Both the position numbers and the translations under genes were made by a program. Positions 7,571 through 35,052 of a stretch of 36,043 nt of DNA are shown piece by piece; the stretch's first letter is position 1, and the number at the start of each line of letters is the position of its first letter. Below the pieces are notes generated by a model that did not search any database, had not been told where the DNA came from, and was given only the letters and a program-made list of their open reading frames with translations. The DNA is from a virus (Duplodnaviria > Heunggongvirae > Uroviricota > Caudoviricetes). The DNA is taken from positions 1 to 36,043 of IMG/VR virus record IMGVR_UViG_2693429599_000012. The stretch is one strand, 5' to 3'.

Positions 7571-9475
7571 ATGAAACTAATTTCTAATAAGGCCAAATTA
7601 AAAAAGATTCTTAAAAATATCTCTGCTGCAATTCGACCGCCTAAAGCCATGAAACCTAGCGAATGGGTAGAGGCTAATGTAGTTGCTACCGATGGTGTTA
7701 AAGCCGGATCGCTAATTAAATTGCATCCCTTCCAACGTGGAATGATGGACGCGATCACCGAAGACCGTAGAAAAATTGTGTTTAAATGTTCGGCGCAGTT
7801 GGGTAAGACCATGATTCTTAACGGAATTATCTTCCATCGGATCGCGAGTAACCCTACTAATATTGGGGTCTTGCAAAGTAACGTTAGGGAACTAAATTCT
7901 TGGATCGCTGGTAAGGTGAAGCCAGTATTAGAGGCAACGCCAGAATTAAAAGCGATGATCACCGACAAATCAGATCGCAATGCCGTTAACAACTCATCGA
8001 TTATTCAGCTTCGTAACGGATCGTTTATGTATTTCATGTCGTTGAATAGTCCGTCACATCTTCGCGGTAAAACACTCCCTTTGATTATTCTTGATGAAGT
8101 TGATGCGGCTGATGAGTCAGACGAAGGGAACCCGATCCAGCTAGCGGAACAACGCGCAACCACTTTCGGGGAAGATGCAAGGATCGTAATTGCTTCCACT
8201 CCAACCGCTCGTGATGGGGCGATTAACCAACAATGGGAACTCTCGGATAAGAGAAAATATCATGTCGTTTGCCAGCATTGCGGACACAAGCACGTAATGG
8301 AATGGAGTAACGTACATTTCGATTGGCATACGATTAACGGTAAATCATTACCCAACCCAGATACAGCCGTTTACCGTTGCCCTGAATGTGAAACCGACTG
8401 GACCGAAGGGGATCGCCTCCGTGCTGTTGCTCAGGGAGAATGGGTCGCCACCGAACCTAATGCGGAAGTAATCGGTTTTCATGCTAACCGCCTTATGTCT
8501 CCGTTTAGTTCTATCCGTGCGTGTGTGGTGGACTTTGCTGATAGCTACGCGAATATGTCGCTGGCAACGTTCTATAATGTGGTGCTCGGTGAAACCTTCG
8601 ATGATCTTAACGAAGATCGCACAGCCGACGAACTGGAAACGCTGAAAACTGATATTAGCCTAGACAATATTCCTGATGATGTACTGGCTCTGGTAGGTGG
8701 AGTTGACCAGCAAAAAGACCGTCTGGAATCTACCTTGCTGGGTATCTCTCGTAAGGGGATATGCGTAGTTGATCACCGATCATTCTATGATGTGAACTGC
8801 GAACGCCACGAATCGCCAGCATATGACCAGCTTTATAACTTCCTGAAAGCGAAATTCTATACCCGATCCGGTGAACGAATCCCGATGCTATCTGCTTTCG
8901 TGGACTCATCGAACGGACGAGCTACAAACGTGATCTACCGTTTTTGCACTAGGTGGCAAAACCTATGCGCCATTAAAGGCGCAAGTAATGCTGATGCTCC
9001 AATCCTTCCGGCTAAGGACACAAGAACGGGTGGTTTTACCCTTAAAATTCTGGGCGTAAACAACCTTAAAACGATGATCCGTGAAATGATTAACCGGAAC
9101 TTGAGAGACAGCGATCCTCATACGGTCTTCCAGATTGGCGACGTTCCTGATGACTATTGCGAGCAATTGCTTTCTGAACAGTTGAAACGGCAGGGTAATA
9201 CCACACGTTGGGTAAAAGTTGGTCAGCAACGAAACGAGGCTCTCGACTGCCTGGCTTATTCCTATGCTGCTTCTCGCCATGTACTCAATAAAATGTCATG
9301 GGAAAAACTCGAAGCCATCAAAGATAGTTTGAACCGTGAACCAGAAGAATCCGTAGAAGCTCCTAAATCGCAATCTGACGAGAAAATAGAAGAAACTAAG
9401 CCAATCACACGACCACAACGTAAAAACATCGCCAGACGCCCAAATAGAGGCCGTAGCTGGGTAACATCGTTCTAA
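7571..9475 (+). CDS. Terminase large subunit (lambda GpA-like)
   Basis: Walker A-like KCSAQLGKT and Walker B-like LIILDEVD; HPFQRGMMDAI near the N-terminus; 634 aa; positioned upstream of the portal gene. Confidence 0.85.
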   Translation: MKLISNKAKLKKILKNISAAIRPPKAMKPSEWVEANVVATDGVKAGSLIKLHPFQRGMMDAITEDRRKIVFKCSAQLGKTMILNGIIFHRIASNPTNIGVLQSNVRELNSWIAGKVKPVLEATPELKAMITDKSDRNAVNNSSIIQLRNGSFMYFMSLNSPSHLRGKTLPLIILDEVDAADESDEGNPIQLAEQRATTFGEDARIVIASTPTARDGAINQQWELSDKRKYHVVCQHCGHKHVMEWSNVHFDWHTINGKSLPNPDTAVYRCPECETDWTEGDRLRAVAQGEWVATEPNAEVIGFHANRLMSPFSSIRACVVDFADSYANMSLATFYNVVLGETFDDLNEDRTADELETLKTDISLDNIPDDVLALVGGVDQQKDRLESTLLGISRKGICVVDHRSFYDVNCERHESPAYDQLYNFLKAKFYTRSGERIPMLSAFVDSSNGRATNVIYRFCTRWQNLCAIKGASNADAPILPAKDTRTGGFTLKILGVNNLKTMIREMINRNLRDSDPHTVFQIGDVPDDYCEQLLSEQLKRQGNTTRWVKVGQQRNEALDCLAYSYAASRHVLNKMSWEKLEAIKDSLNREPEESVEAPKSQSDEKIEETKPITRPQRKNIARRPNRGRSWVTSF

Positions 9476-10052: not shown

Positions 10053-11564
10053 ATGTTTAATCTTTTTCGACGCAAAAAGGCGGTAGAAACTCCAGTTAAA
10101 ACTAATCACCGCCAGCAACAACCAAAAATTTTCATCGACAAACAAGTAGAAAAATTCCAGAAAGATTTGTCTAAGCGTTCTTTGGGCTTGGTCGGTGATC
10201 GCATTGATGGATCACTTCAACAAGACACCATTACAGGAACCTTCAATAAGGCTCTCAAATCGAACGGTAAGCGTCTTTATGATCAGGGTCGTACTCTGGC
10301 CTTAAACACTTCCGTTGGCAGTCGCTACACGCAATACATCACCGATATGGTGGTTGCTACTGGCCTAGATCCTAAGCCGTCAATCGTTAAATCAAATGGC
10401 AAACTTGATAGCGCACTGAATAAGCAGATCGAGAATGCTTTCTGGAAGTGGGCGCAGAACGCTAAACGCTTCTCTCGTAACGGTCGTTTTAACTTCCGTG
10501 AACTGCTGGTAATGGCTGAACGTGAGCGCGTTATGGGTGGTGAGTGCTTCATCGTTTTAACCAAAGAAAACAATGAGTTAAATGTTTCTATCCTGTCTGC
10601 TGATAAGTGCGACTGGTCGCTCAACCGTGAAGTAAGCAAAGACCGTGCGATATTTCAGGGGATTGAGTATGACGTAGAAACAATGCGCCCTGTTGCATAC
10701 TGGTTTCGTAAAGTCAATCTACTGACTCAGACCTACACAGGTGATAACTATCGTGTCGAGGCTTCGCAAGTATGCCATTATTATCAACCACTTACGGCTG
10801 AATCTCTGCGTGGTGTGACTGACTTCCTACCAGTGATCAAGGATATCGCACATCAAGACGCATTCCGCGAAACTGCAATTATCCAGAAACGCATTGCAGC
10901 TAGCTCTATGGGCTTTATCGAACGTCCGAAAGATTCTGGTGACGATTTTGATACTGGCGAAGATGAAGACCAATATCAAGTGCCGGAAGTAGTACAGGAT
11001 TTTGCACCGGGTACTATTCAGGAATTGCCGGAAGGGGCAACGATTAAATCAATCCAAGCTACTCAATCAGGCGATGACTTTAACAGCTTCAATGATGCGA
11101 TGTTCACTAGCGTATCAATGGGCTTAGGCGTGTTTAAACAGGGCTTGACTGGTGATACTTCCCAGATCAACTACAGCGCCGCGCGTTTTGGTGAATTAAC
11201 TCAGCGTAACCGCGTTAAAGCACTGCAAAACAAATTAATTGAAACAGTGGTATTGCCAATTTTCGAAGCATATCTACGCCATTATTCCGCGCGTGGTATT
11301 GTTCCGATTCGTATTACTGCAATTCCGCATATTATCGATAACACTACTATTATTCGTCCGCGTTTTGAATCCGTCGATCCATTTAAAGACGTAAGCGCCG
11401 AGATTGCTTTAATTGATAACGGACTTAAATCACGTACTGCCGTTATTCTTGAACGTGGTGATGATCCTGAAAAAGTATTCTCAGAGATTCAAGCCGAAAA
11501 GAGCGCACTAAATATTATCGTTAATGGCGAGGGTGAAGAAAAAAATTCCCCAGCCGATCCCTAA
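10053..11564 (+). CDS. Portal protein
   Basis: 503 aa; immediately downstream of the terminase large subunit and upstream of the protease-capsid gene; acidic segment DSGDDFDTGEDEDQYQ. Called mainly from size and synteny. Confidence 0.7.
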   Translation: MFNLFRRKKAVETPVKTNHRQQQPKIFIDKQVEKFQKDLSKRSLGLVGDRIDGSLQQDTITGTFNKALKSNGKRLYDQGRTLALNTSVGSRYTQYITDMVVATGLDPKPSIVKSNGKLDSALNKQIENAFWKWAQNAKRFSRNGRFNFRELLVMAERERVMGGECFIVLTKENNELNVSILSADKCDWSLNREVSKDRAIFQGIEYDVETMRPVAYWFRKVNLLTQTYTGDNYRVEASQVCHYYQPLTAESLRGVTDFLPVIKDIAHQDAFRETAIIQKRIAASSMGFIERPKDSGDDFDTGEDEDQYQVPEVVQDFAPGTIQELPEGATIKSIQATQSGDDFNSFNDAMFTSVSMGLGVFKQGLTGDTSQINYSAARFGELTQRNRVKALQNKLIETVVLPIFEAYLRHYSARGIVPIRITAIPHIIDNTTIIRPRFESVDPFKDVSAEIALIDNGLKSRTAVILERGDDPEKVFSEIQAEKSALNIIVNGEGEEKNSPADP

Positions 11565-11609: not shown

Positions 11610-13610
11610 ATGCTTAAATTTCGCCGCGAACTTAACGGTTACGGTGGAGTTATTAACGAAGGGCATAACGATCAATACGAATTTGAAATTGCTTTCTCCA
11701 GTGAACAGCCTTATCAGCGCCAATTCTGGGATGAGCAAAATCAAGAAATGGTGGTATTAGATGAAATTCTGGTACATACACCGGAAGCGGTTGATCTGTC
11801 TCGTCTGAATAATAACGCTCCGTTGCTGTTTAATCATAATTTCGATAATCACATTGGCGTCGTTTGTAACGCTCGAATCGATGCGGATAAAGTAGGCCGT
11901 GCGACCGTTAGATTCTCTAAGCATGGCACTTTGGCTAATGATATTCGCAATAAAGTCATTGAAGGTACGATGGAAAAAATTTCTGTCGGTTATGACATTA
12001 AAGAATATCACATCGATTATGCCAAAGGACAATTGATTGTTACTAAGTTTGTTCCTTTCGAATTAAGTTTTGTTACGGTCCCGGCGGACGATTCGGTCGG
12101 TTTAAATCGCTCTCTAAATACTATCACAGTTAATTTGGAGGCTAAACGCGATATGACTAAAGAACAAATTGAAGAAATCAAAGAAGAACAAGAATCCGCT
12201 CAGGTTGAAGAAACTCCGGTAGAAGAAAATAAAGAATCGGAAGTAGAAGAAACTCAAGAGCGCCAAGTTGAAGAGAATGAAGAAAATGAAAATCTCGAAG
12301 ACGGAAAAGACGCTGAACATCCTGAAAGTGTTGATGATGATAGTTCAACTGTTCGGGAAGCAGAAGAAGTAAAAGAAGAACGTGAAGCCGCTCCGGTTGA
12401 AGAAGAAAAAACCGAGGAAGTGGCTGAACGTTCCGAAGAAGACGAATTAGAAATCCGCGAGATCGCGCGGGAACTAAATATTGACGACGAAGAATTAAAA
12501 CGCGCATTGGCAATTAAAGACATGACGCCGGAAGCATTCCGCACTAAGGCACTAAATAACATTACCAATGCTCAACGTAATAACGAACAAATTAAGGAAT
12601 CTAAAATGGAAAAAACTTTTGACCTGAACAACGTAATTCGCTCTCTGGTAGATGGTGCTGCTCTGGGTGCTAACGAAGCCGAGTTTTCTGCTATGGCTGC
12701 TGGTGCTGCAATGCAGCGTGGTCGTGCTGCTCGTGGTGGCTCTGTATTCGTTCCGACTGCTGCTATGCGTGCTGCTGCTGATGGTAACACCAAAACTACT
12801 CTGGAAGCTGTAACCGACGAAAAACTGCTGAATGATTCCTATGTAGCGATGCTGTTACCGGAATCCGTTCTGGGTCGTCTTGGTGTGAAAGTCCTGTCTG
12901 GTCTGACTTCGCCGACTGCTATTCCGAAAATGACCGCTTCCAGCGTTGAATCTTTCGGCTTCGTTGATGAAAACGGTGCTGCACCGGAAGGTAAAGCAGA
13001 ATTTGCAAACGTGAAAATGGCTCCGAAAACTTTTGCTGGTGGCAACCCGATCAGCCGTCAGTCTCTGAAAACCGTTCCGGGCATCGCTACCCTGATCACT
13101 GATCACATTAACCAGGCTGTTCGCATCAAACTGGAACAACTGATTCTGTCTGATAAAGATAATGCTCGTGGTCCGGCTGGTGTGATTAAACAACTGGTTG
13201 ATGCAAGCCGTGTTGAGAAGAAAGCTGCTTTCTCTTACAAAGACTTCCTGAAAGAAATCGCTAAACTGACCGACGCTGGCGTTCCTGCTCAGGCGATCAA
13301 GTTTGCGATGAGCGGTGCAACTGCTGCTGAACTGGAATCTACCCTGAAAGATAACGGCGTTTCCGGTTATATCATCGAAAACGGTAAACTGGCTGGTTAC
13401 GAAGTAGTTACTTCTGGTGTTATTCCGGTAGACCACATCGTTCTGGGTGACTTCTCCGCTATTACCATCGGTGAATGGGGCGGTCTTGAGCTAGATCTGG
13501 ACGATTCAACCTACAGAGCACAGGGCGCGATCGTTCCGCGTATCTGGGTAGATCTGGATTATGTTGTTACTCAGCCGGAAGCTCTGAAAGTTCTTCACAT
13601 CTCCGAATGA
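11610..13610 (+). CDS. Fused prohead protease (HK97/U35-like), acidic scaffold-like linker and major capsid protein
   Basis: N-terminal ~170 aa carry protease-like motifs (ISVGY, ELSFVTVPADDSVG); residues ~180-300 are a highly acidic, repetitive linker; the C-terminal ~350 aa look like an HK97-fold capsid protein. Confidence 0.75.
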   Translation: MLKFRRELNGYGGVINEGHNDQYEFEIAFSSEQPYQRQFWDEQNQEMVVLDEILVHTPEAVDLSRLNNNAPLLFNHNFDNHIGVVCNARIDADKVGRATVRFSKHGTLANDIRNKVIEGTMEKISVGYDIKEYHIDYAKGQLIVTKFVPFELSFVTVPADDSVGLNRSLNTITVNLEAKRDMTKEQIEEIKEEQESAQVEETPVEENKESEVEETQERQVEENEENENLEDGKDAEHPESVDDDSSTVREAEEVKEEREAAPVEEEKTEEVAERSEEDELEIREIARELNIDDEELKRALAIKDMTPEAFRTKALNNITNAQRNNEQIKESKMEKTFDLNNVIRSLVDGAALGANEAEFSAMAAGAAMQRGRAARGGSVFVPTAAMRAAADGNTKTTLEAVTDEKLLNDSYVAMLLPESVLGRLGVKVLSGLTSPTAIPKMTASSVESFGFVDENGAAPEGKAEFANVKMAPKTFAGGNPISRQSLKTVPGIATLITDHINQAVRIKLEQLILSDKDNARGPAGVIKQLVDASRVEKKAAFSYKDFLKEIAKLTDAGVPAQAIKFAMSGATAAELESTLKDNGVSGYIIENGKLAGYEVVTSGVIPVDHIVLGDFSAITIGEWGGLELDLDDSTYRAQGAIVPRIWVDLDYVVTQPEALKVLHISE

Positions 13611-13807: not shown

Positions 13808-14098
13808 ATGTTCAAATTATCAGAATCACAATTATCAAGAATGTTCCGAAGTGCTCCTGTATTTTCGGTGGAAGGTGGTAAATCAATTCGTGCTTATCAT
13901 GAAATTACTACTACCGACGAACAAGGGGTAATGACAGAGACAGAATTTCTATTTTGTCGTGAGGGAGACTTAAAGCAGGGTGATATTGTCATTGTAGAAA
14001 ATCAGCGTTTCAAAGTTCAATACGTTAAGCGCAATGGTGACAATACAACTGATTGCTTTATCACTCTGGCAGGGGGTACACATGCTCGCTACCGTTAA
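13808..14098 (+). CDS. Putative head-tail connector / head completion protein (96 aa)
   Basis: AAGGGGG RBS; small gene right after the capsid gene. Function from position only. Confidence 0.4.
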   Translation: MFKLSESQLSRMFRSAPVFSVEGGKSIRAYHEITTTDEQGVMTETEFLFCREGDLKQGDIVIVENQRFKVQYVKRNGDNTTDCFITLAGGTHARYR

Positions 14099-14504
14099 TA
14101 ACATGCCTAGACTGAAAATCAAACGCGCCTTGCAAGATATTATCGAACAAGATTTAGGTCTGGCTTTAAACGTAGAACAAACTCAGCAAGGCTTTAGTGA
14201 TGATGTGGTTTGTTGGATTACTGGCATGAATGAGACTTACACAAGGGTCCGTGGTGGTAATGCAATGCAAGCTGAATGCGTTATCGAAATGCAATTATAT
14301 TCCCAAATTCATGAAACCAAAATCCATGAGGGTATTTGCCAGATAATCCAGATTCAGCCGGATAACCCACGTTTTAAAGATTTGGGCTTCGCTATTTCAG
14401 ATATCACTCCAGTAGCTTCTAACACCGATTATGACGATGATTCTAGTGATGGGGGTATCGTTGGGACACTTAGCCTTAAATTTTCTTATGTAGCGCGTTT
14501 TTAA
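14082..14504 (+). CDS. Putative head-tail connector / tail completion protein (140 aa)
   Basis: AGGGGGT RBS 5 nt upstream of the ATG at 14082; overlaps the previous gene by 17 nt (translational coupling). Confidence 0.4.
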   Translation: MLATVNNMPRLKIKRALQDIIEQDLGLALNVEQTQQGFSDDVVCWITGMNETYTRVRGGNAMQAECVIEMQLYSQIHETKIHEGICQIIQIQPDNPRFKDLGFAISDITPVASNTDYDDDSSDGGIVGTLSLKFSYVARF

Positions 14505-14513
14505 GGGGTAATA

Positions 14514-15347
14514 ATGAATATTACACAAGATAACTTAGACATTTTCACGGGGTCACATGTTGAAGTCTCCGTGTCTACTATGGTGGATAACCAGCCGGAC
14601 TTTTTCGATCCTGCATTTAGTCCTATCGAGAACATCGCAGCATTCCCTACGATCACCGAATCTACAGAGATCCAGACGTTAGAAGAGTATGACCAGGACG
14701 CTACGGGGAAACTTGCTGGTTATCGTAAACTGGAACCGACAACACTCACGTTAAACCGTGTTCTGGATGACGAACATCAAGACATGTTGATGAAAGCGGT
14801 GAATGATAAAACACCTTTACGCTTCCGAATGTTCTATGTTGTGAACTCTGGCTATAGTGCTGCTAACACTGGTTACTATGTCATCTATGATGCTTACGTC
14901 ACATCACATAAAACCCGTGGTAGCGATAACAAAGTTACTACCATCGAATTTAAATTAGATCCTGATGGTGGGATTCTCGACCGTGGTATTGCCACCGAAG
15001 GCCGGATCTTACGTCAAGGTGATTTTGGTTTGGGTGCTGGTGTACATCCATTCACAGGTCCGATTGATAGCGAAGCATTAGCCGGAAACCGTTTCGTAAC
15101 TTATCAGGGATCGAGCGCATCTAATCCATTTAGTGCTGATACTTCACTAATTCACGTTCAACCTAATGAAGATGGTGGATGGCAATTAACTTGCACCGCT
15201 TCCGGCGCACCACGTTTACGAGTTCGCACAGTCCAGAAAGACGGTAATTCTGGATGGGTGAAAGTGTATTCCACAGAAGAAAAACCGACACCAGCCGAGA
15301 TTGAAGCCGTTTCTATCCATGACCGGATCGACTTCGGGGAATACTGA
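14514..15347 (+). CDS. Tail protein with lambda gpV-like N-terminal pattern and C-terminal extension (candidate major tail protein)
   Basis: The N-terminal ~140 aa follow a major-tail-protein-like pattern; the C-terminus carries EEKPTPAEIEAVS, shared with the downstream fiber (GDKPTPAEIGAYS). Confidence 0.4.
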   Translation: MNITQDNLDIFTGSHVEVSVSTMVDNQPDFFDPAFSPIENIAAFPTITESTEIQTLEEYDQDATGKLAGYRKLEPTTLTLNRVLDDEHQDMLMKAVNDKTPLRFRMFYVVNSGYSAANTGYYVIYDAYVTSHKTRGSDNKVTTIEFKLDPDGGILDRGIATEGRILRQGDFGLGAGVHPFTGPIDSEALAGNRFVTYQGSSASNPFSADTSLIHVQPNEDGGWQLTCTASGAPRLRVRTVQKDGNSGWVKVYSTEEKPTPAEIEAVSIHDRIDFGEY

Positions 15348-15373
15348 TTGCTTCTCTAAATAAAACATGACGC

Positions 15374-15405
15374 GGGAGGTTAACGCCTCCCTTATTCCTG
15401 TTTTA
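15374..15405 (+). terminator. Putative terminator after the V-like gene
   Basis: GGGAGG-ttaacg-CCTCCC followed by TTATTCCTGTTTTAT. Confidence 0.45.
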
Positions 15406-15420
15406 TAGTGAGGTGATTCG

Positions 15421-18400
15421 ATGCAGTCGATCCAATTTAAACGAACTAATGTTTCTGGCAAAAAGCCAACGCCGGAACAATTACAGGTCGGTGAGGTGGC
15501 AATCAACCTTAAAGACCATGTTATTTTTACCAAAGACCGAGATCATGAAGTAGTTCAAATCTCTGTTTCTCCTGAAACTCACGCGGCACTAGAATCTAAA
15601 GTTGATGCTAACAAACAAGAATTGGATAGCACAATTGCAGTAAATGACCGCAATATTCACGCTAAAGTAGATGAAATTAAACAAACTACTGATTCTACTA
15701 TCGCAGCAAATCATGCAGAAATTAACAATAAAGTTGATGTAATTAAACGCGAAACCGACGCGACAATCGAAGCTAATAAAAATAAAGCTGCTTCCGATCT
15801 TGCTGGTGTTAAAGCTGAATTGTCGGATACCATCAACGCTAATAAAAATGCGGCTGCTGTAGCAACTCAGGAACTGGACACCCGCATCAATAAAAAAGTT
15901 GATGATATTAAATCCCGTACAGATGCAACCATCGCAAGCAATGACAAAGCAATCAATGACAAAGTTGATTTGATTAAGACAGAAACTGACCGCACTATCG
16001 CAGCAAATAAAGTCTATGCGGAAAATCAGTTAACTGACACCTACAATAACCTTACTGGTGTGATTGCAGCCAATAAGCAAGAGGCAGCGGATAACGTTGC
16101 GGCATTAACCCGTGATGTTGAAGCCAAAAATACAGCAATTCATAGCAAAGTTGACAATAACAAGTCTTACACTGATTCTGAACTGGCACGTTTAGAAAGC
16201 CGTATTGATGCAGCCGATGGATCTGCTGATGGCAAGTACATCAAAAAACACGTAAACACTTATACTGATGGTTATTTGCTGTCTAAGACCGCAAACTATT
16301 TTGATGATCCAAATGCGCGTAATCTTGATTACTTTGGTGCATTCCGCATGAATGACCTGGCGGGTCATATTGCAATGATCTTGCATGTTCCGCATCCATC
16401 TGGTGTTAATCATGCTCGTGGCTTTGAGTTCACTTATGGGTCTAATCCGGTTCATACGGTAAGAACATACGGCTATGATGAATTGGGTCATTTGGCATAT
16501 TCTCACCGCATGTATCATGAAGGTGATAAACCTACTCCTGCCGAAATTGGCGCATATTCGAAAGCAGAAATTGACCGACTGTTCCAGAAGACGCTTAATT
16601 TTGGGATCGAGGGTGGTTGGTTTAAACTAGGCACTTTGACAATGCCACAGCAACACGGTCGTAGTGCTAAGATCCGCTTAGTTGGTGGTAACGGTTATAA
16701 CGTCGGGATGAATGGACAAGCCAATATTATCGAATTGGTGATTCGATGCGGCAACAATAGCCCGAAAGGTGTTGTATTCAATGCGTATTATACTATTTGG
16801 CATTATGAACAACATTTTTGCGCTATTCCAACCGATGGCGACAATTACGATCTTTACGCTTACTACGGTGCACATACAGGATTTGTTTTAGCAGAATATC
16901 AAGTTTCTTCCGGTGGTGTTTCTTTAAACCTGTTGGATACTCCTGAATATCTGGGTGGTGAAAAACCTGTTGCAGATGAAATTTTTGATGCTCTTAACAT
17001 TTCATCGTTCAATAACTTTAGCAACCGTGGAACGTTAAATTTTGCGGGAAACCATCAAGGCCAATACGACATTGAGCATTTGAACGAACAACAAACAAAT
17101 GCTAAGAAAATGTTGCGTCGCTTCCGTAGTTCTGCTCCTGCCACTATCTGGCACGAAAGTGTTGATGACCAAAATTATCGTCTTGCTACTGGATATACCG
17201 ATGTAAACCAACAATTATTGCTTTCAGTTGCGACCGGTTTGCATATTCGTAGATTGACCATCGATGGTGGCTTAGGTTCCGGTTCTAATGCTGGTATTGA
17301 TATTCGTCGAGGACCAAACGAAGCAAGCCATTTTAATTTCATGGATTATCGCACTGGACAAGATGTTCGTAATGGCTGGTTTGGTTTTGGTGATTTGACG
17401 ACCAAAGATTTTATTTGGTGGAACGATAACGGTCAAAACTCTATAAACCTGATTGAAGATGGTGAATTACATATTACTGGTGGTAAAGGCCAGAAAATTG
17501 TAATGAATAGCGAAGTTGCATTATCTGAAAATGCTCGTTTGGCTGTCAAAGGCGGTAACTATGGTTTGATGTTACGCAATGATGGTTCTAGCTTCCATAT
17601 TCTTACTACCGATTTAAAAGATTCTTTTGGTAGTTGGAATAATCGCAGACCATTTAGTTATGATTTCGCCGAAGGTGGATTAGATCTAGGTGGTACTGAA
17701 ACTGCTCGTTGTTTGCATCTGGGGATCGATGGTAGTACCCGCATCGAAGATAACTTAGTTTTCAGAGCGGGATCACGTCAATCAATGGACTATATTGAAA
17801 TGATCCATTGGGGTAACAGTAATACAGGACGCAACAACGTTTTGAGTATGCGGGATTCCAAAGGATTCTTGGCTGAATTTGAACGTGTAGGCGGGACCAA
17901 CGGCGTTAAAACCAGATTCTTTGGTGAAACCTTCACTGACGGTACATTATACCTAAATCAGATGAATAATAGCTCTGAACGATTCTCTATCAATAATTGG
18001 GGAAATTCAGAAGTTGGTCGCGCGGCAGTGATGGAAGTCGGTGATTCCAAAGGTTATCACTTCTATACGGAACGTAGGACAGATGACACCGTTTTGTTTG
18101 ATGTATCCGGTTCTTTGACCGTGCATGGACCTAACGGAATAACCGTCAAAAACTCAACTGGTGCACGCCATATCTGGTTTAGAGATGATAGCGATACGGA
18201 AAAGGCTGTTATCTGGGCTACAGATGAGGGTATGTTACATATACGAAATAATCATGAGGGTTCATTTGCTCATCACTTCCAGGGCGCAATGATTAAACTG
18301 GAAGGGCGTGTTCCTTATGCCGCAGATCAAGGACTTATCCGTGGTGAGGTTTCTGGTGGTGCATATGTTGCATGGAGAGACCGACCTGCTGGTTTGTTGG

Positions 18401-18951
18401 TTGACTGTCAACAAAGCGTTGATAGTGCTCATGCTATTTGGAAAGCGGTTGATTGGGGTCGTCAATATATCGCAGCAATGGATGTGCATTGTCCCGGTGA
18501 TGGTAATAATACTGCGGCAGCGGTTCTTCATGTTCAGGCTGCTGATTATCAATTCCATGCAAGCGGAGAATTTCATGCCAGTGGCAACGGAAACTTTAAC
18601 GATGTGTATATTCGTTCTGACCGTCGTCTGAAAATTAACGTTGAAGACTACGAAGAAAATGCGGTAGATAAGGTAAATAAACTCAAAGTTAAAACCTACG
18701 ATAAAGTTAAATCTCTTAATGACCGAGAAGTTATAGGTCATGAGATTGGTATTATCGCACAGGATTTACAAGAGGTATTACCGGAAGCTGTTAAAACCGC
18801 AAAAATTGGTGGTCTTGATAACCCAGAAGAAATTTTAACAATTTCAAACTCCGCAGTGAACGCGCTTTTAATTAAAGCGGTCCAAGAAATGAGCGAAGAA
18901 AATAAACTTCTTCGTGAACGTCTTGCTGCAATTGAAGCTAAATTAGGGTAA
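15421..18951 (+). CDS. Side (L-shaped type) tail fiber protein with C-terminal intramolecular chaperone / peptidase S74 domain
   Basis: 1176 aa; N-terminal KRTNVSGKKPTPEQLQVGEVAINLKD; internal ~20-aa tandem repeats (KVDxIKxxTDxTIAAN, 4-5 copies); C-terminal ~120 aa YIRSDRRLKINVEDYEENAVDKVNKLKVKTYD...LLRERLAAIEAKLG is typical of S74 autoproteolytic chaperone domains. Confidence 0.8.
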   Translation: MQSIQFKRTNVSGKKPTPEQLQVGEVAINLKDHVIFTKDRDHEVVQISVSPETHAALESKVDANKQELDSTIAVNDRNIHAKVDEIKQTTDSTIAANHAEINNKVDVIKRETDATIEANKNKAASDLAGVKAELSDTINANKNAAAVATQELDTRINKKVDDIKSRTDATIASNDKAINDKVDLIKTETDRTIAANKVYAENQLTDTYNNLTGVIAANKQEAADNVAALTRDVEAKNTAIHSKVDNNKSYTDSELARLESRIDAADGSADGKYIKKHVNTYTDGYLLSKTANYFDDPNARNLDYFGAFRMNDLAGHIAMILHVPHPSGVNHARGFEFTYGSNPVHTVRTYGYDELGHLAYSHRMYHEGDKPTPAEIGAYSKAEIDRLFQKTLNFGIEGGWFKLGTLTMPQQHGRSAKIRLVGGNGYNVGMNGQANIIELVIRCGNNSPKGVVFNAYYTIWHYEQHFCAIPTDGDNYDLYAYYGAHTGFVLAEYQVSSGGVSLNLLDTPEYLGGEKPVADEIFDALNISSFNNFSNRGTLNFAGNHQGQYDIEHLNEQQTNAKKMLRRFRSSAPATIWHESVDDQNYRLATGYTDVNQQLLLSVATGLHIRRLTIDGGLGSGSNAGIDIRRGPNEASHFNFMDYRTGQDVRNGWFGFGDLTTKDFIWWNDNGQNSINLIEDGELHITGGKGQKIVMNSEVALSENARLAVKGGNYGLMLRNDGSSFHILTTDLKDSFGSWNNRRPFSYDFAEGGLDLGGTETARCLHLGIDGSTRIEDNLVFRAGSRQSMDYIEMIHWGNSNTGRNNVLSMRDSKGFLAEFERVGGTNGVKTRFFGETFTDGTLYLNQMNNSSERFSINNWGNSEVGRAAVMEVGDSKGYHFYTERRTDDTVLFDVSGSLTVHGPNGITVKNSTGARHIWFRDDSDTEKAVIWATDEGMLHIRNNHEGSFAHHFQGAMIKLEGRVPYAADQGLIRGEVSGGAYVAWRDRPAGLLVDCQQSVDSAHAIWKAVDWGRQYIAAMDVHCPGDGNNTAAAVLHVQAADYQFHASGEFHASGNGNFNDVYIRSDRRLKINVEDYEENAVDKVNKLKVKTYDKVKSLNDREVIGHEIGIIAQDLQEVLPEAVKTAKIGGLDNPEEILTISNSAVNALLIKAVQEMSEENKLLRERLAAIEAKLG

Positions 18952-18989
18952 TTGGAAAGCGGGGAGAAATCTCCGCTAAGGATTCTTAT

Positions 18990-19286
18990 ATGGGATATTG
19001 GGTAAGTAGTGAAATTAATACTAAAATCGATGCTTTAAAATGGCATGTATTTGATATTCCTAACGGCTATGGTACTGCTCGTGCTGGTGTCGCTGTAATG
19101 CGTCATAATGCTGGTGGTGGGTGGTCTGATGCACATATTAACGTAGATGGTTTGACCGTTGCTCGTCGTCGTGGTGGGACCAATTGGGGATCTACTATAA
19201 ATTCGTTTGTTCCTGCTGGCTGCACCGTCTCCTTTGGTTTAGGGGGTGAAGGTGGTGTTGAATATTTTAAATTCATGGAGTTTTAA
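18990..19286 (+). CDS. Small protein, paralog 1 of 3 (98 aa), unknown function
   Basis: AAGGA RBS; shares W..FDIPNG(Y/W) and a C-terminal TVSF.LG...YFKF motif with the next two genes. Confidence 0.6.
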   Translation: MGYWVSSEINTKIDALKWHVFDIPNGYGTARAGVAVMRHNAGGGWSDAHINVDGLTVARRRGGTNWGSTINSFVPAGCTVSFGLGGEGGVEYFKFMEF

Positions 19287-19288
19287 TT

Positions 19289-19594
19289 ATGGCTGGATGG
19301 ATAAATCAAAGAATGTCAAACGCTATTAGTATTTGGGCTAATGGTGGATATTTTGATATCCCCAACGGTTGGGTCACTGATTCATGCGGAATTGTCTTTG
19401 CTCATATGGAAGCCATTAACGGTGCTGGTGATCTTGATTCTGAATTGGCTGTAAATGGATTGATTGAATCAGGCCATCATGCTGGTGATGCTGGGAGTTG
19501 GGGTGCTAGTTCTTTAGTTGGCGCTGGTGCTACCGTTAGCTTTACATTGGGTAAAGGTAGTTTGCATTATTTCAAATTCAGGAGAATGCACTAA
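19289..19594 (+). CDS. Small protein, paralog 2 of 3 (101 aa), unknown function
   Basis: GGAG RBS; start 3 nt after the stop of paralog 1; YFDIPNGW and ATVSFTLGKGSLHYFKF. Confidence 0.6.
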   Translation: MAGWINQRMSNAISIWANGGYFDIPNGWVTDSCGIVFAHMEAINGAGDLDSELAVNGLIESGHHAGDAGSWGASSLVGAGATVSFTLGKGSLHYFKFRRMH

Positions 19595-19896
19595 TGGCAT
19601 TTTGGGTAGATGGCGCTTTGGGGAATAGGGCGGGTAAAGCAAATCAAGGATGGTTTGATATTCCTAACGGTTGGACAGCCGACGCTTTCGGGACTATTTC
19701 ATTCTGTGCTCATTCTTCCGGTGGTGGCGGCGGTGACTCTGAATTGTTTATTCATGGTTTTTGTGTTTCTGGAAGCCATAAGGGTCATGATTGGGGACAG
19801 ATCCATTCTTGTATTGCACCGCAAGGAGCAGTAATTACAGTTAGCACAAATAGGGGGATCGCTCATCTTCGTTATAGACGTTTGAGCAATCGCTAA
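19594..19896 (+). CDS. Small protein, paralog 3 of 3 (100 aa), unknown function
   Basis: AGGAGA RBS; start overlaps the stop of paralog 2 (TAATG); WFDIPNGW motif; Gly-rich SSGGGGGD. Confidence 0.6.
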   Translation: MAFWVDGALGNRAGKANQGWFDIPNGWTADAFGTISFCAHSSGGGGGDSELFIHGFCVSGSHKGHDWGQIHSCIAPQGAVITVSTNRGIAHLRYRRLSNR

Positions 19897-19950
19897 ATAA
19901 ATAGAATTACGGGTATGTACCCTATTGTTTAAAATAGAAGGAAAAGAATA

Positions 19951-20424
19951 ATGACTACTAAATTTGATATTTTTTCTGGTGGCCTCGTTGGTCTGTTTCT
20001 GCAAGAAGACGTAAGCAATAAAGACCTTGATGCTGAAACCTATCTGGAAATCCCAGAATGCGCAGCGTTCCCGGAAACTGGTGTAGAACGTTCTACTATC
20101 GATGTTCCTAACTTCTCTGGTGCTTATAACCGTAAGCTGGTTGGTCGTATGTCTGTACCTGATATCGAACTTTCGATCAACTACATTCCGGGTAACGAAG
20201 TACACGAAAAACTGATTAAAGCAACCGAAGACGGTAAGCGCGTACAGCTTAAAATTGCTTACTACATCGATGCTACGAAAAAATCTGGTGTACATATCGC
20301 TTATAACGGCTTCCTGTCTAAAACTACCATGACTGGTGGTGAGGATGCTGTAGTAGGCCGTACCTTCACCTTTGTAGTAGATGGTGCTCCGGTTAAACAA
20401 GCTGTTTTCCAGAAAGTCGTCTAA
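19951..20424 (+). CDS. Tail tube-like protein (157 aa), second candidate major tail protein
   Basis: Strong RBS; immediately upstream of the G/G-T chaperone genes; followed by a strong terminator, as expected of a highly expressed structural gene. Confidence 0.5.
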   Translation: MTTKFDIFSGGLVGLFLQEDVSNKDLDAETYLEIPECAAFPETGVERSTIDVPNFSGAYNRKLVGRMSVPDIELSINYIPGNEVHEKLIKATEDGKRVQLKIAYYIDATKKSGVHIAYNGFLSKTTMTGGEDAVVGRTFTFVVDGAPVKQAVFQKVV

Positions 20425-20431
20425 TATTATC

Positions 20432-20457
20432 TAGCCATCCTTCGGGGTGGCTTTTTT
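20432..20457 (+). terminator. Rho-independent terminator with TTCG tetraloop
   Basis: AGCCATCC-TTCG-GGGTGGCT followed by TTTTTT. Confidence 0.65.
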
Positions 20458-23678: not shown

Positions 23679-24239
23679 ATGTTCAAATCCAAAAATATTA
23701 AAATCACAGATTTTACTCTTAAATCAAAACAGCCTTTCTTCAAGGCGCAATCTATTTCTGGTAAATTTCAACGTCGCTTTACTGGCATTCATTTTTATGA
23801 AGCAGAATTTACAGCTAATTTCATGGCTCAGGATATTAACGAAGTAAAAGAATTTGTAGCACGTCACCTTTTTGGTCGTCCTTTCAGTGTGCCACTGTCT
23901 TACTTTTCAAAATATACAGGTGATGTACGCCAGATGGTTACGGCTGCTGCTGGTACTGCTCGCGGTGGGCGTAAGGTAAGACTCTCCAACTTCGCCGGAA
24001 CACTGAAAGCGGGAACTATCATCCAGTTTGAGAACCACAAGAAAATCTACACGATCACCGAAGATGTGAAATCAGGTGGTGAAATGAAACTCTTCCCTAA
24101 CTTGCGTCAGAACGTCCTAGCGGGTGAGGTGATCAAGTATCAGAACGTAGAAGGTGAATTTGTTCTCAAAACTGAAAATATCGATTGGAAGATCGCTCAG
24201 ATTGGCAAGATGAAATTCGAATTAGTGGAGAATGTATAA
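23679..24239 (+). CDS. Minor tail protein (distal tail / gpM position)
   Basis: 186 aa, immediately after the tape measure gene. Called from synteny. Confidence 0.5.
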   Translation: MFKSKNIKITDFTLKSKQPFFKAQSISGKFQRRFTGIHFYEAEFTANFMAQDINEVKEFVARHLFGRPFSVPLSYFSKYTGDVRQMVTAAAGTARGGRKVRLSNFAGTLKAGTIIQFENHKKIYTITEDVKSGGEMKLFPNLRQNVLAGEVIKYQNVEGEFVLKTENIDWKIAQIGKMKFELVENV

Positions 24240-24938: not shown

Positions 24939-25358
24939 ATGCTAAAAACTAGGCTTATCACCGATTATATCAATTCTTTAATAGGTCAGGAGTTCGTTCA
25001 AGGCGAGAATGATTGCAATCTCATTGCATGTAAGATCATCGATATTCTCGCTGGTACTGACCTATATAATTCTCTTTATAAAAAATATTCAACTAAAGAA
25101 GAAGGCTTGAAAATCTGCAAAGAATTAAGCGGGTATTCAAATATCCTTCAACCAATTAAGAAACATTTCAAATTAGTCACTGATGACTTACAGGACGGCG
25201 ACTTACTGGTCACAGCCCACAAATTAGGAAACCGCAAATATTATTCCGTAGTTCCTCATTATTCCGGTTATGGCCTCGTTGAAGAAGATGGTATCTGGAT
25301 GACCATTCCTGTTTCAGACATTGACTATGAACAAGTTTATAGATTCGGGGGTGAATAA
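24939..25358 (+). CDS. Tail assembly protein with NlpC/P60-like motif (gpK-like)
   Basis: GGAGG RBS; QGENDCNLIA resembles the NlpC/P60 catalytic Cys motif of lambda K (HGVTDCYTLF), with downstream His-containing HYSGYG. Confidence 0.5.
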   Translation: MLKTRLITDYINSLIGQEFVQGENDCNLIACKIIDILAGTDLYNSLYKKYSTKEEGLKICKELSGYSNILQPIKKHFKLVTDDLQDGDLLVTAHKLGNRKYYSVVPHYSGYGLVEEDGIWMTIPVSDIDYEQVYRFGGE

Positions 25359-28300
25359 TGGGATTTGAAGTATTGGTAGGCGCGGTTATTGCTGGTGCGT
25401 CTGCTGGGATGGCTGCTGCTGCAACATTTTCTGTTATGACCGCAGTCGCTATCGGTATGGCTGCTGGTGCAATGACCTTGATTGCTTCCACTGTAGGCGC
25501 ACCAAAAACACCGAAAGTACAAAGCCCGGATAATGCGGTGACACTAGGAACATCAAACGATCCGAAGACAGTATTACCCGTTCTTTTCGGTACTACCCGA
25601 ACTGGTGCAATCTGCGTTTACAAAGCAATTTCACAGCGTGAAAATAACAAACTGGTACAAATTTTTGCTATTGCCGAAGGTGAGATCGATCACTTTAAAG
25701 CACTGCACATCGATAATAAAAATGTTCTCATTAGTCAGAATATGACAATTCGTGATGGCATTCTCGATAAAGGAAACATTAAAGACGAATATCGCAAAGT
25801 GTTAGAAGTCGAGTTTCGCACGGGTAAAAATCCTAACACTGCATTAGATCTTGCTAAACATCATTTGGGCGCTGATTGGGATGATCGGTATCAGGGTAAC
25901 GGCATTGCGACCATGTGTATTGTTTTACGTCGTGATGACAAATCTTTGGCTGCTGGTGTTGATATTCTCCAGCCTAATAGCCAGGTAGCGGTCGATGTTA
26001 TGGGCTTAAAAATCCGTAACCTTGAAACCAATGCTATTGAGGCAAGCACTAACGGCGTGGACCAGATTTTCCACTACCTAACAAATGAAAAATATGGCTT
26101 ATCCGTACCAATTGAAAACATCAACGTTGATTCATTCCTGAAAGTACGTAAACAAGTACGCCAGATGGACCTACATTCAAACGGTGCATGTGATCCGAAC
26201 GCCAGCTTTAAAGAGAACTTAACTAGCCTTATGCAGACTTTCGGCGGGGTAATGTTCGAATCCTTCGGAAGAATTACTCTGAAACTGGATGCTCCTGATA
26301 TTGTTAAGCATACCTTCAATGAAGACAATATCATGATGGGAAAAGTATCACTGAAAACAGGTGGCACTAACGGTTATTTCAATACCATTAACGCGATGTA
26401 TCAAGAACCATCAATCGACTATTCAGAGCAAATGCTACGTTATCCGGCTGATGCTGAAAACGATGCTACTATTCGTCAAGATGGTCGAATTATCGCTAAA
26501 GATATTGAATATCGTTTTGTTAAGTCTAAAGCCCAGATTGATAAACTTGCGAGTATTGAACGAAATAAATCTCGTATCACTCAGGTTATCAGCTTTATGA
26601 CTACTGACGCATTCACTGCCGAAGTTTGGGACGTTATCAGCGTAACCTATGATGAATTAAAACTGAATAATTCACTTTGGCGTATTACTGCAATTGATCG
26701 CTCGATTGATTCTGGTATTGCTGGGATGATGACTATCACCGCCACAGAATATAATTCTCAGGTTTATACTGACCTGAACTATGCGGCGACTCCAGACAAT
26801 AGACCTACTGGTTTACCGGATTCAATGACAGTACAGAAACCGACTAATTTCAGAATTAAGGCAACTGGTGAGACAATCCACGGTAAAAACGTAACTTTGA
26901 CATGGGATGCACCGGAAGATTTTAACCGCTACGGTTTCCAGATTGATTATCGTGTGAGTGGATCACCTAACTGGATTAAGCTGGGACAGACTTCACAGCA
27001 AATTTTCAATATCAATGCACTGGCAAAAGATCGCTCCTACGATTACCGCGTTTGTGCTTTCGGTATTATTGCTCGTTCCGAATGGGTGGAACTGGTTAAC
27101 CAGAATCCAGAAGTTACCTATGAACTGCCTACGCCAGTGATCCGCATCAAAAATCAGGGGAGCACACCAGGAACTTTTGAAGGCAATGATCTGATTATCG
27201 AATGGGAAAATCAGCAAGCCTTAGATGTGGTTATCAACGGTGAAGCTAACAAGTTTAGTGACCTGTTTGAAGCATACATTATCAAGGTAACTAACAAGGC
27301 TGGTAAGTCTATTCAGTACCGTACCCGCGACCCTGAATCATGGATTTATACGCTTGATATGAACCAGTTTAACGGCCTTTCCCGTGAATTGACGGTAGAA
27401 GTATCCGTTAAGGGCTATAACAACTCAGAGAGCGCCCCAGCGCGTTTAGTGGCTATTAACCCACAACATAAGCCAATGAAAGGTTTTAGTGCGCGTGGTG
27501 GCTTTAATACTGCGTTTGTTAGCTGGGCGGATGACGTAGAACATGACTATGCAGGGTCAATCATCCAGTATGCAACCGATAATACTTTCTCCGATGCAAG
27601 GGCAGTGACTACCAATAGCGTTAGTCATACTTCCTTTGATTTGGCTGACGGTGATTATTATATCCGTGGTGCTCACTATGATATTTTCGGTATGGATGAT
27701 GCTGTTTGGTCTGAACCGTATTTCATGCAAATGAAATCTACCATTAGCTGGGACGATCAGGACAAAGAAGCACTGGAAGACCTGATTGGTTTACAAGACC
27801 GCTTAGATGAAACTATCGCGGATGCTATTGCTCAAGCTGGCGCTAATGCCGATGCTAAAATTGATGCAATGCATAAGCAAATCACTACCGAAACAGGGCA
27901 GACGGTCCAAGCCTCAGCCAATACCTTAAAGAGTCTGATTGCTACCAGCGAGCAAGCTAGCTCCACTAAGATTGATCAGGTTAAAGCTGAACTGAAAGGC
28001 GATATCACCAAAGAAGTTAGCGCATCCGCTACTACCCTGAAACAAGCAATTGCTACCAGTGAGGCAGCAAGCGCAAGTAAGATTGATCAAGTTCGGGTAG
28101 AAATGGATGGCAAGATTGCTGGTGTGAATCAGGAAGCAGATGTAAAAATCGATGCTTTGAAGGGAACCATTAACAGCAAATATAATCTGGCAGTTAATGC
28201 AGATGGTCGCGTGGCTGGTATTCATATGAGCGCAACCAATGATCCGGCAGAACCGACGAGAATCATCTTTACGGCTGATAAAATCGCGGTAGCTCCACAA

Positions 28301-35034: not shown

Positions 35035-35052
35035 ACCATTTCCAAACAAAAA

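Follow-up and report, generated by a model that had tools for sequence, protein, structure and literature searches.

A tail-tube paralogue with a T-even gp36-type end as the probable anchor of a two-piece side tail fibre in a temperate lambda-like siphophage

How does a lambda-like siphophage hold a side tail fibre whose gene lies ahead of its tail tube gene? The question is raised by the virus record IMGVR_UViG_2693429599_000012, of which we analysed a stretch of 36,043 nucleotides (nt), hereafter the window. The annotation of its open reading frames (ORFs) with Pfam and PHROG shows lambda-type genes that make up the structural module of a temperate siphophage, here an E. coli prophage. Within this module, a gene for a 277-amino-acid (aa) protein (14514-15347, + strand) is followed by the gene of a 1176-aa side tail fibre (15421-18951, + strand; phrog_1699, long tail fiber distal subunit, E 3.8e-138). 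A sequence-only reading had called the first protein V-like and had placed this cassette between its tube-fold gene and the tail tube gene (19951-20424), not after J; the position is as it said. We think it probable that the two genes encode a single two-piece side tail fibre, built like the distal half-fibre of T4 and differently anchored. The V-like protein, which combines a tube-fold domain, a fibre knob and a gp36-type C-terminus, would then be the fibre's own anchor or adaptor, and we call it the anchor below.

In its N-terminal part, the anchor resembles a tail tube protein in sequence and in predicted structure. Residues 11-154 match phrog_158 (major tail protein; E 1.9e-8), and the anchor aligns with the 157-aa tube protein of the same phage (BLASTP E 1e-5, 20% identity). 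The AlphaFold2 (AF2) model has per-residue confidence scores (pLDDT) of mostly 72-95 across aa 11-160, interrupted by two disordered loops (aa 54-68 and 113-115, pLDDT <50), and together with Foldseek it delimits a tail-tube-fold domain at aa 13-160 (14550-14993, + strand). The best PDB match of the model in Foldseek is lambda gpV (7t4f, E 7e-8, probability 1.0), so the name V-like is apt, and the other top matches are siphophage tube proteins (YDC107, 80alpha). We put aside the identification of the anchor as the tail terminator, suggested by the position of gpU: the best folds are those of tube proteins, and a separate 140-aa protein (only 9 close homologues found) fills the preceding slot.

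These matches raise the possibility that the anchor is itself a tube subunit, either major or minor and co-assembled, in which case fibres or knobs would decorate the whole tail. Its fold is indeed closest to genuine tube proteins, not terminators, and C-terminal decorations are common in such proteins, e.g., in lambda gpV with its immunoglobulin (Ig) domain, SPP1 gp17.1* and T5 pb6. Yet the canonical slot directly 5' of the G and T chaperone and tape-measure (TMP) genes is not that of the anchor gene: it is occupied by the gene of the undecorated 157-aa protein (19951-20424, + strand), which also scores better against tube families (phrog_158, E 5.8e-20; with sub-gathering Pfam matches to Phage_TTP_12, E 1.1e-4, and Phage_TTP_11, E 1.4e-4). 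Because of this slot, these scores and a strong terminator-like hairpin 3' of the gene (20433-20452), as is also found 3' of the capsid gene, the 157-aa protein appears to be the true tube subunit. The sizes of the anchor's relatives point the same way. When an anchor-family profile was searched against 1.84 billion cluster representatives (50% identity), 145 were retrieved at E<=1e-10, and most of the 150 best-scoring ones have 400-1650 aa, starting N-terminally with the tube-like domain and the knob and continuing as a long fibre. Extensions reaching ~1650 aa make ~200 copies per tail implausible. Given also the low identity between the two paralogues, we regard a tube subunit as an improbable role for the anchor.

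The C-terminal 115 residues of the anchor are those of a fibre. They consist of a knob-type module, then a KPT motif and then a conserved end, DRIDFGEY. The knob-type fibre domain (aa 169-256, GDFGLGAG...WVKVY; 15018-15281, + strand) is kept across the family and aligns with aa 300-380 of the fibre (E 0.008). An Ig-like (Big_2) decoration was absent from this C-terminal domain in Pfam at E<=0.1, fibre knob modules being matched instead. The last residues of the anchor (...VYSTEEKPTPAEIEAVSIHDRIDFGEY; ...KPTPAEIEAVSIHDRIDFGEY), which include the stretch HDRIDFGEY that we call the plug (15318-15344, + strand), resemble the C-terminus of T-even gp36. Over the last 28 residues, the anchor is 46% identical (E 3e-5) to the gp36 C-terminus (...YHEGHKPTPAEVGAVPLNAVIDFGTF, ...AVIDFGTF) of the Krischvirus vB_EcoM_G37-3 (hereafter G37-3), a virulent T4-like myophage in which the gp36 homologue lies directly 5' of gp37. 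T4 gp36 itself ends in ...DSVQDFGYY, and the anchor residues D273 and G275 are invariant across the family. Longer family members secure the homology with gp36: P0114 carries a T4 gp36-like extension (32% identity across 166 aa, E 1e-15) and P0105 matches the C-terminal 73 residues of G37-3 gp36 (42%, E 2e-13).

The fibre, in turn, starts like gp37. Its first 50 residues (MQSIQFKRTNVSGKKPTPEQLQVGEVAINLKDHVIFTKD...; 15421-15570, + strand) form a gp37-type N-terminal domain, here termed the socket. The first 47 residues are 45% identical to aa 4-50 of T4 gp37 (E 2e-12), and the domain is 36% identical to G37-3 gp37 (E 5e-10). T4 gp36, as a trimer, attaches to the N-terminal region of gp37 (PMC3004832). 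By this homology, our two proteins are likely to dock through the anchor C-terminus (..DRIDFGEY) and, on the side of the fibre, through its ~50 N-terminal residues (IQFKR..GEVAINLKDHVIFTKD).

Plug and socket occur together. Under strict patterns, they were found on adjacent genes in 52 of the 54 IMG/VR loci that hold both genes, the other two being a sequence variant and a truncated contig. In these loci the pairs co-vary by clade: the plug IDFGEY goes with the socket IQFKRT, IDLGTF with IKFKRT, IDLGYL with IQMRRT and LDAGVF with VKHYRT. The anchor of Escherichia phage DCP80 is larger (699 aa) and ends in ...VIDFGLE. In a Proteus prophage the joint occurs twice. There, the anchor ends in ...IDFGEF. 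Next comes a 198-aa coiled-coil connector whose N-terminus is a socket and whose C-terminus is a plug (...LIMDFGTF), and the gene after it, for a 675-aa fibre, begins with another socket. Residues 1-190 of the window fibre are 42% identical to this connector. The window fibre thus reads as a Proteus-type connector fused in frame to a gp37-like body, with a peptide bond in place of the second joint. The covalent solution goes further in L011, a 111-kb contig with the same synteny, in which the whole fibre is one 885-aa protein that starts with a tube-like domain.

One could argue that the shared termini reflect no more than the common ancestry of fibre modules, the fibre being anchored otherwise and the 277-aa protein being an independent short decoration. 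Fibre motifs are notoriously promiscuous, and motifs of the KPTPAEI type (see below) occur in many unrelated positions. Such promiscuity would have to produce the strict adjacency of plug and socket across these loci, the repeated use of the joint in Proteus and its replacement by covalent fusion in relatives, while a collar domain that could serve instead, like that of lambda Stf or T5 p132, was not detected by sequence. We therefore find this explanation improbable.

How would the two-piece fibre be assembled and held? The anchor, a paralogue of the tail tube protein, would use its N-terminal tube-fold domain to make up a tail ring or to enter one. A fibre knob and then the gp36-type end make up the C-terminal part of the anchor, and this end would bind the 1176-aa fibre at its gp37-type N-terminal domain, in the manner of T4 gp36 and gp37. 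The fibre would continue with a hendecad coiled-coil shaft (aa ~59-265), then with a Krischvirus-type gp37 body and a receptor-binding tip. It would fold with the help of its own C-terminal S74 chaperone, and self-cleavage at Ser1066 would release a mature fibre of 1065 residues. Such a side fibre would serve for reversible primary adsorption, and the lambda-J-like central fibre (25358-29134), which has a lambda-type C-terminal receptor domain, would perform the terminal step.

The place of the ring is less clear-cut. Function and the precedents of lambda and T5 favour the junction between tube and tip, whereas the order of the genes speaks for the head-proximal tube end. In the latter arrangement, the same two-piece fibre would sit on a ring under the tail terminator and would give neck or collar fibres, not tip-proximal side fibres. 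Gene order is often colinear with position, and the anchor gene comes after the head-tail joining genes (13808-14504) and ahead of the tube gene, not among the tip genes; in T5, by contrast, the position of the p140 gene has been read as the mark of a baseplate component (PMC10038345). The dimensions of the particle fit a neck ring poorly: we estimate from residue counts a fibre of ~80 nm, and from the 809-aa tape measure a tail of ~120 nm, so that fibres anchored at the neck could not reach the cell at the same time as the tip. In siphophages, the known side fibres (lambda Stf, T5 pb1) are also at the tube/tip junction (PMC12617516, PMC10038345). We thus give fibres at the neck a real but minor chance.

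Several points weigh against a two-piece fibre anchored in this way. The binding of the two termini is something we infer from sequence, the likeness of the plug to gp36 concerns ~28 residues only, and the co-variation of plugs and sockets by clade could be explained by the shared descent of neighbouring genes instead of by an interface. No solved structure of the gp36-gp37 joint is available for comparison and, since T4 gp36 is without one, homology modelling of the joint is not possible. In the AF2 model of the anchor, confidence is low for the C-terminal half, and the protein matched no model of Pfam or NCBIfam (the fibre and the three small proteins encoded downstream of it also had no match in NCBIfam), while a search of PDB sequences with the anchor-family profile gave nothing meaningful. 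A hexameric ring would offer six arms to trimeric fibres, which therefore calls for two fibres per ring or for a symmetry mismatch. Finally, the direct comparison of the anchor with T4 gp36 is not significant (BLASTP E 0.12), and the N-terminal region by which gp36 joins gp35/gp34 (MADLK.GST.GGS.IW.QGN) is absent from the anchor, which has the tube-fold domain instead. The anchor is therefore not an orthologue of gp36, but a fusion with a gp36-type end.

The first hint of a relation between anchor and fibre had been a motif, KPTPAEI, which the sequence-only reading saw in both proteins and took for a possible docking or recombination module. The motif is indeed present at aa 257-263 of the anchor (15282-15302, + strand) and at aa 370-376 of the fibre, within GDKPTPAEIGAYS (16528-16548, + strand), and its regular expression matches only these two places among the 14,408 aa of the window ORFs. 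The third copy then proposed, GKKPTPEQL (fibre aa 13-21), belongs instead to the gp37-type N-terminal domain. The shared 7-mer goes beyond chance (only 27 of 2000 shuffles of the anchor share even a 6-mer with the fibre), and the match between the proteins extends across 81 aa, i.e., it is the knob alignment given above. The motif is therefore no low-complexity accident. It is generic in another sense, being a recurrent motif of T-even fibre knobs: the pattern is also found in T4 gp34 (FDGGNPPQPSDIGA), in T4 gp36 (YSEYNKPQAADNDF), four times in Krischvirus gp36 and once in Krischvirus gp37. In the anchor family, K257, P258 and T259 are invariant or nearly so, and profile positions ~190-269 (knob and motif) recur 4-8 times within other long fibres. 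The recurrence of knob and motif in other fibres identifies KPTPAEI as the C-terminal edge of a recurrent fibre module.

What remains of the proposed docking is the relationship between the two proteins; the docking itself is more likely to involve the termini, by their homology with gp36 and gp37, than KPTPAEI. The idea of a recombination module also divides in two. At the DNA level, the two KPTPAEI-coding segments are identical at 39 of 84 nt and have diverged at most of their synonymous sites. They thus offer no substrate for recombination today, and the longest exact match between the anchor and fibre genes (12 nt) is within the range of shuffled sequences. These comparisons exclude a recent duplication or a live recombination substrate at the motif copies. 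Over evolutionary time, the motif does mark the boundaries of modules: length variants of the anchor differ by whole modules inserted after the first KPT motif and before the plug at the end.

Beyond the socket, the fibre is a composite. Residues 59-265 (15595-16215, + strand) form a region of hendecad or 22-residue repeats, which we presume to be a trimeric coiled-coil shaft. BLOSUM autocorrelation peaks at lags of 22, 44 and 77, with weak signals at 11, 33 and 55, and there are ~6-7 recognisable units of the form KVDxIKxxTDxTIxAN between aa 59 and ~200, the hendecad register persisting to ~aa 265. The 11/22-residue period fits an alpha-helical trimeric shaft, and the region has a weak Pfam match to Apolipoprotein, a family of 11/22-mers. 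The repeats announced from the sequence (4-5 tandem units of ~20 aa) are thus real, with a longer period and more units, but the suggestion that they are prone to length variation was not borne out. When we compared copy numbers, the 953-nt segment 15348-16300 aligned end to end in 26 E. coli genomes, where it spans 946-955 nt, and no indel of 33 or 66 nt was found in the repeat segment of these genomes. Units are 30-64% identical at the DNA level, and Tandem Repeats Finder detected no array in the fibre DNA, only a trivial 15-nt repeat of two copies.

The gp37-like body and receptor-binding tip occupy aa 285-1065 (16273-18615, + strand) and include a Gp34_trimer domain (aa 647-747; 17359-17661, + strand). 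The C-terminal domain is, as had been proposed, an S74 intramolecular chaperone (aa 1066-1176; 18616-18951, + strand), with a match to PF13884 at aa 1066-1125 (E 5.4e-15; 55.9 bits, with the cutoff at 22). Self-cleavage in this family requires a Ser, a Lys five residues later and a G(V/I)IAQ trimerisation motif (PMC3742440). The fibre has the dyad S1066-DRRL-K1071 and GIIAQ at aa 1110-1114, and cleavage is predicted at Ser1066.

The distal part of this fibre is shared with a T4-like phage. Fibre aa 285-1176 and the three small genes downstream match G37-3, where the genes are ordered alike. The nucleotide identity is 84% over the whole match, and the 892 residues of the fibre are 78% identical to the gp37-like protein of G37-3. 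There was no significant match between the fibre and the body of T4 gp37 itself. The identity to G37-3 is uneven along the DNA: it is 60-70% in the proximal fibre body (16271-17020), 87-95% in the shaft (17021-18220, with one bin at 74%), 59-77% in the receptor-binding tip (18221-18670) and 96-99% from the end of the S74 domain through the three small genes (18821-19869).

These three small genes (18990-19286, 19289-19594 and 19594-19896, all on the + strand) encode tandem paralogues of 98, 101 and 100 aa that share the motif W..FDIPNGW. The triplet is 96-99% identical in nucleotides to the one that follows gp37 in G37-3, in the same order, and the only other cultured phages with it are G2248 and UPWr_E1. 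The AF2 model (pLDDT 84) has an N-terminal helix and a C1q/TNF-like jelly roll, and its Foldseek matches are C1q domains and C-terminal knobs of phage fibres. In relatives, a gp38-type adhesin is encoded in the slot of the triplet. The presence of three different C1q-like chains suggests a heterotrimeric knob, which may cap or extend the fibre tip after the S74 chaperone has departed.

Was the cassette inserted among the tail genes, as the sequence-only reading had it? A recent insertion between two existing tube genes would account for the near-identity of the fibre 3' part and the small genes with a T4-like phage, and this 3' part is, by that same identity, a recent acquisition. The rest of the cassette tells a different story. 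In all the relatives examined (E. coli, Proteus, IMG/VR and metagenome sequences and phage DCP80), the order is conserved: a 95-aa protein, a ~140-aa protein, the anchor, the fibre or fibres with accessory genes, the tube, G, T and TMP. Protein homologues are also found in Salmonella, Providencia and Edwardsiella, anchor and fibre form a single gene in some relatives, and the window shows no shift or break in GC composition. The conservation of the order indicates that the arrangement is ancestral to the lineage and not an insertion. Exchange affects only the distal fibre, beyond ~aa 54-65 or beyond aa ~245-285, and the accessory genes, while the anchor gene and the fibre N-terminal domain stay in place. 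Accordingly, DNA homology with diverged E. coli prophages covers the N-terminal domain only and ends at ~nt 15581-15615 (fibre ~aa 54-65). The variants swapped in carry pyocin-knob/S74 tips, gp38-type adhesins or the three small genes. We consider a recent insertion of the cassette very improbable.

Two features of the locus bear on its organisation in relatives. The spacer between anchor and fibre genes (15348-15420) contains a terminator-like hairpin (15374-15391, + strand), identified by a consensus scan only. In the relatives H62 and H68, it contains a free-standing gene of a 345-aa GIY-YIG nuclease (L073 2379-3416, E. coli OkiPb01713), possibly a homing endonuclease like those of the T4 seg genes; such an enzyme could help this locus and T-even phages to exchange the adjacent fibre DNA. 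In one E. coli prophage clade, a gene annotated as "receptor recognizing protein Gp38" lies 3' of the tail tube gene and not directly after the fibre (L006 12974-13480, and a 168-aa ORF in most type-B IMG/VR loci); the tube gene is therefore embedded within the fibre/adhesin unit.

The two-piece fibre can be compared with known systems. With T4 it shares the succession of adaptor gene and fibre gene, the homologous adaptor C-terminus (..DFGxY) and fibre N-terminus (IQFKR..GELAINLKD..IFTKD), and, with T-even phages more generally, the knob motif KPTxx(D/E)(I/V)GA and the body related to the Krischvirus gp37-like protein. It differs from T4 in that the tail-tube-fold domain and knob replace the N-terminal part of gp36, in that homologues of gp34 and gp35 are missing here, and in the host virus, a temperate lambda-like siphophage. 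After its N-terminal domain, the fibre has an inserted hendecad coiled coil of 200 residues, and folding would rely on the S74 intramolecular chaperone, whereas T4 uses gp38/gp57. The C-terminal domain itself is an ordinary member of the class known from endosialidase-type S74 fibres and spikes, with their Ser-Lys dyad and G(V/I)IAQ.

To our knowledge, the attachment of side fibres is described at the atomic level for two siphophage systems only, the Stf collar of lambda and the p140/p132 collar of T5. In T5, the tube paralogue p140, as one ring set between tube and distal tail protein, and an Ig-like dodecameric collar of p132 hold the pb1 fibre (PMC10038345). Our system would share with it a diverged duplicate of the tube protein dedicated to holding side fibres, and shares a fibre matured by an S74 chaperone. 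In T5 a separate p132 collar stands between ring and fibre, whereas here the ring protein would itself carry the fibre-binding arm: no gene for a p132-like Ig collar was found by Pfam and PHROG within 13808-20424, where all ORFs are accounted for. The T5 gene is among the baseplate genes, whereas the anchor gene precedes the tube gene. The pair p140 and p132 has been stated to be a landmark of T5-like phages only, and the same authors note that side fibres must be anchored differently elsewhere (PMC10038345). Stf/Tfa of Ur-lambda resembles our system in that the tail is of the lambda type, with J as its central fibre and with side fibres whose distal parts are related to T-even gp37 and whose role in adsorption is presumed to be accessory. 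The stf and tfa genes follow J, unlike the fibre gene here, which precedes the tube gene, and no tube paralogue takes part in Stf attachment. Stf builds the collar with its own N-terminus, as a 12-mer that surrounds the V/M junction (PMC12617516), and our fibre had no PDB sequence match to this collar domain (9MGH) at E<=1e-3. In the limited literature searched, we found nothing relevant on tube-domain–fibre fusions, on DCP80 or on gp36-like adaptors in siphophages.

Taken together, the joint and the small genes allow a wider reading, which we put forward tentatively: a third mount for side fibres on non-contractile tails, of which we found no description, with a portable joint and a detachable C1q-like tip knob. 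An in-line tube paralogue would bear six gp36-like arms that assemble into trimeric stubs, able to accept any gp37-type fibre; each ring would have two stubs, or the symmetries would be mismatched. Chaining of this joint is seen in Proteus, and its replacement by a peptide bond in L011. It would form an interface for the exchange of receptor-binding modules between temperate siphophages and virulent T-even myophages, of which the 96-99% nucleotide identity would be a trace. If the fusion of a tube paralogue with a gp36-type adaptor works in this way, it is a solution distinct from the collars of lambda Stf and T5, and the C1q-like tip, if confirmed, would be a new kind of detachable adhesin. 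The pair of plug and socket would be a compact, transferable interface that could serve to graft T-even receptor-binding fibres onto a lambda-like chassis, or the reverse. Temperate and T4-like phages thus trade receptor-binding parts. The near-identity with the 3' end of a lytic Krischvirus locus documents current gene flow between prophages and phages of the type used in therapy, which bears on the prediction of host range.

The system occurs in prophages and among the cluster representatives, yet is nearly absent from cultured phages. The region is present in 55 of 5,426 complete E. coli genomes (~1%), every time on the chromosome; carriers include E. coli PK8568 (NZ_CP080126) and O55:H7 DEC5A (NZ_CP038394). 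The 277-aa protein has homologues in Shigella, Salmonella, Providencia, Edwardsiella and Proteus. A collection with one genome per species held no relatives. Among 50,697 records of cultured phages, tblastn detected an anchor homologue in a single one, that of DCP80, and when a distant long family member was compared with cultured phages, the matches were confined to the receptor-binding end. The DCP80 record (L002, PQ671644; 141 kb) is filed under Straboviridae/Gaprivervirus. It encodes a lambda-type terminase, a portal, a protease–capsid fusion and a siphophage tail module, ordered as in the window: its classification may be mistaken, it may be a large siphophage of an unusual kind, or the assembly may be chimeric.

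The remainder of the window conforms to the lambda-type plan. A gpA-type large terminase (7571-9475) and a portal (10053-11564) precede an S78 protease–capsid fusion (11610-13610), a 666-aa ORF in which a Glu-rich, very acidic linker connects the prohead protease (Peptidase_S78, aa 40-162) with the major capsid protein (aa 410-663). The FII-like protein (13808-14098) and the 140-aa protein (14082-14504) come next. The tube gene is followed by the G and T chaperones, the tape measure and M/L/K-like proteins, with the gpM-like one at 23679-24239. At the right end of the window lies a large serine recombinase (33355-35049, minus strand) with Resolvase, Recombinase and Zn_ribbon_recom domains. In strain 06-00048 (L005 13479-16548), its homologue adjoins a truncated codB, which suggests codB as the integration site. 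Insertion sequences (IS421, IS3 family, IS903B and ISKpn26) are present within the capsid-to-tube region of the E. coli genomes H58, H63, H67 and H94; some are annotated next to a split fibre gene, and these prophage copies may be decaying.

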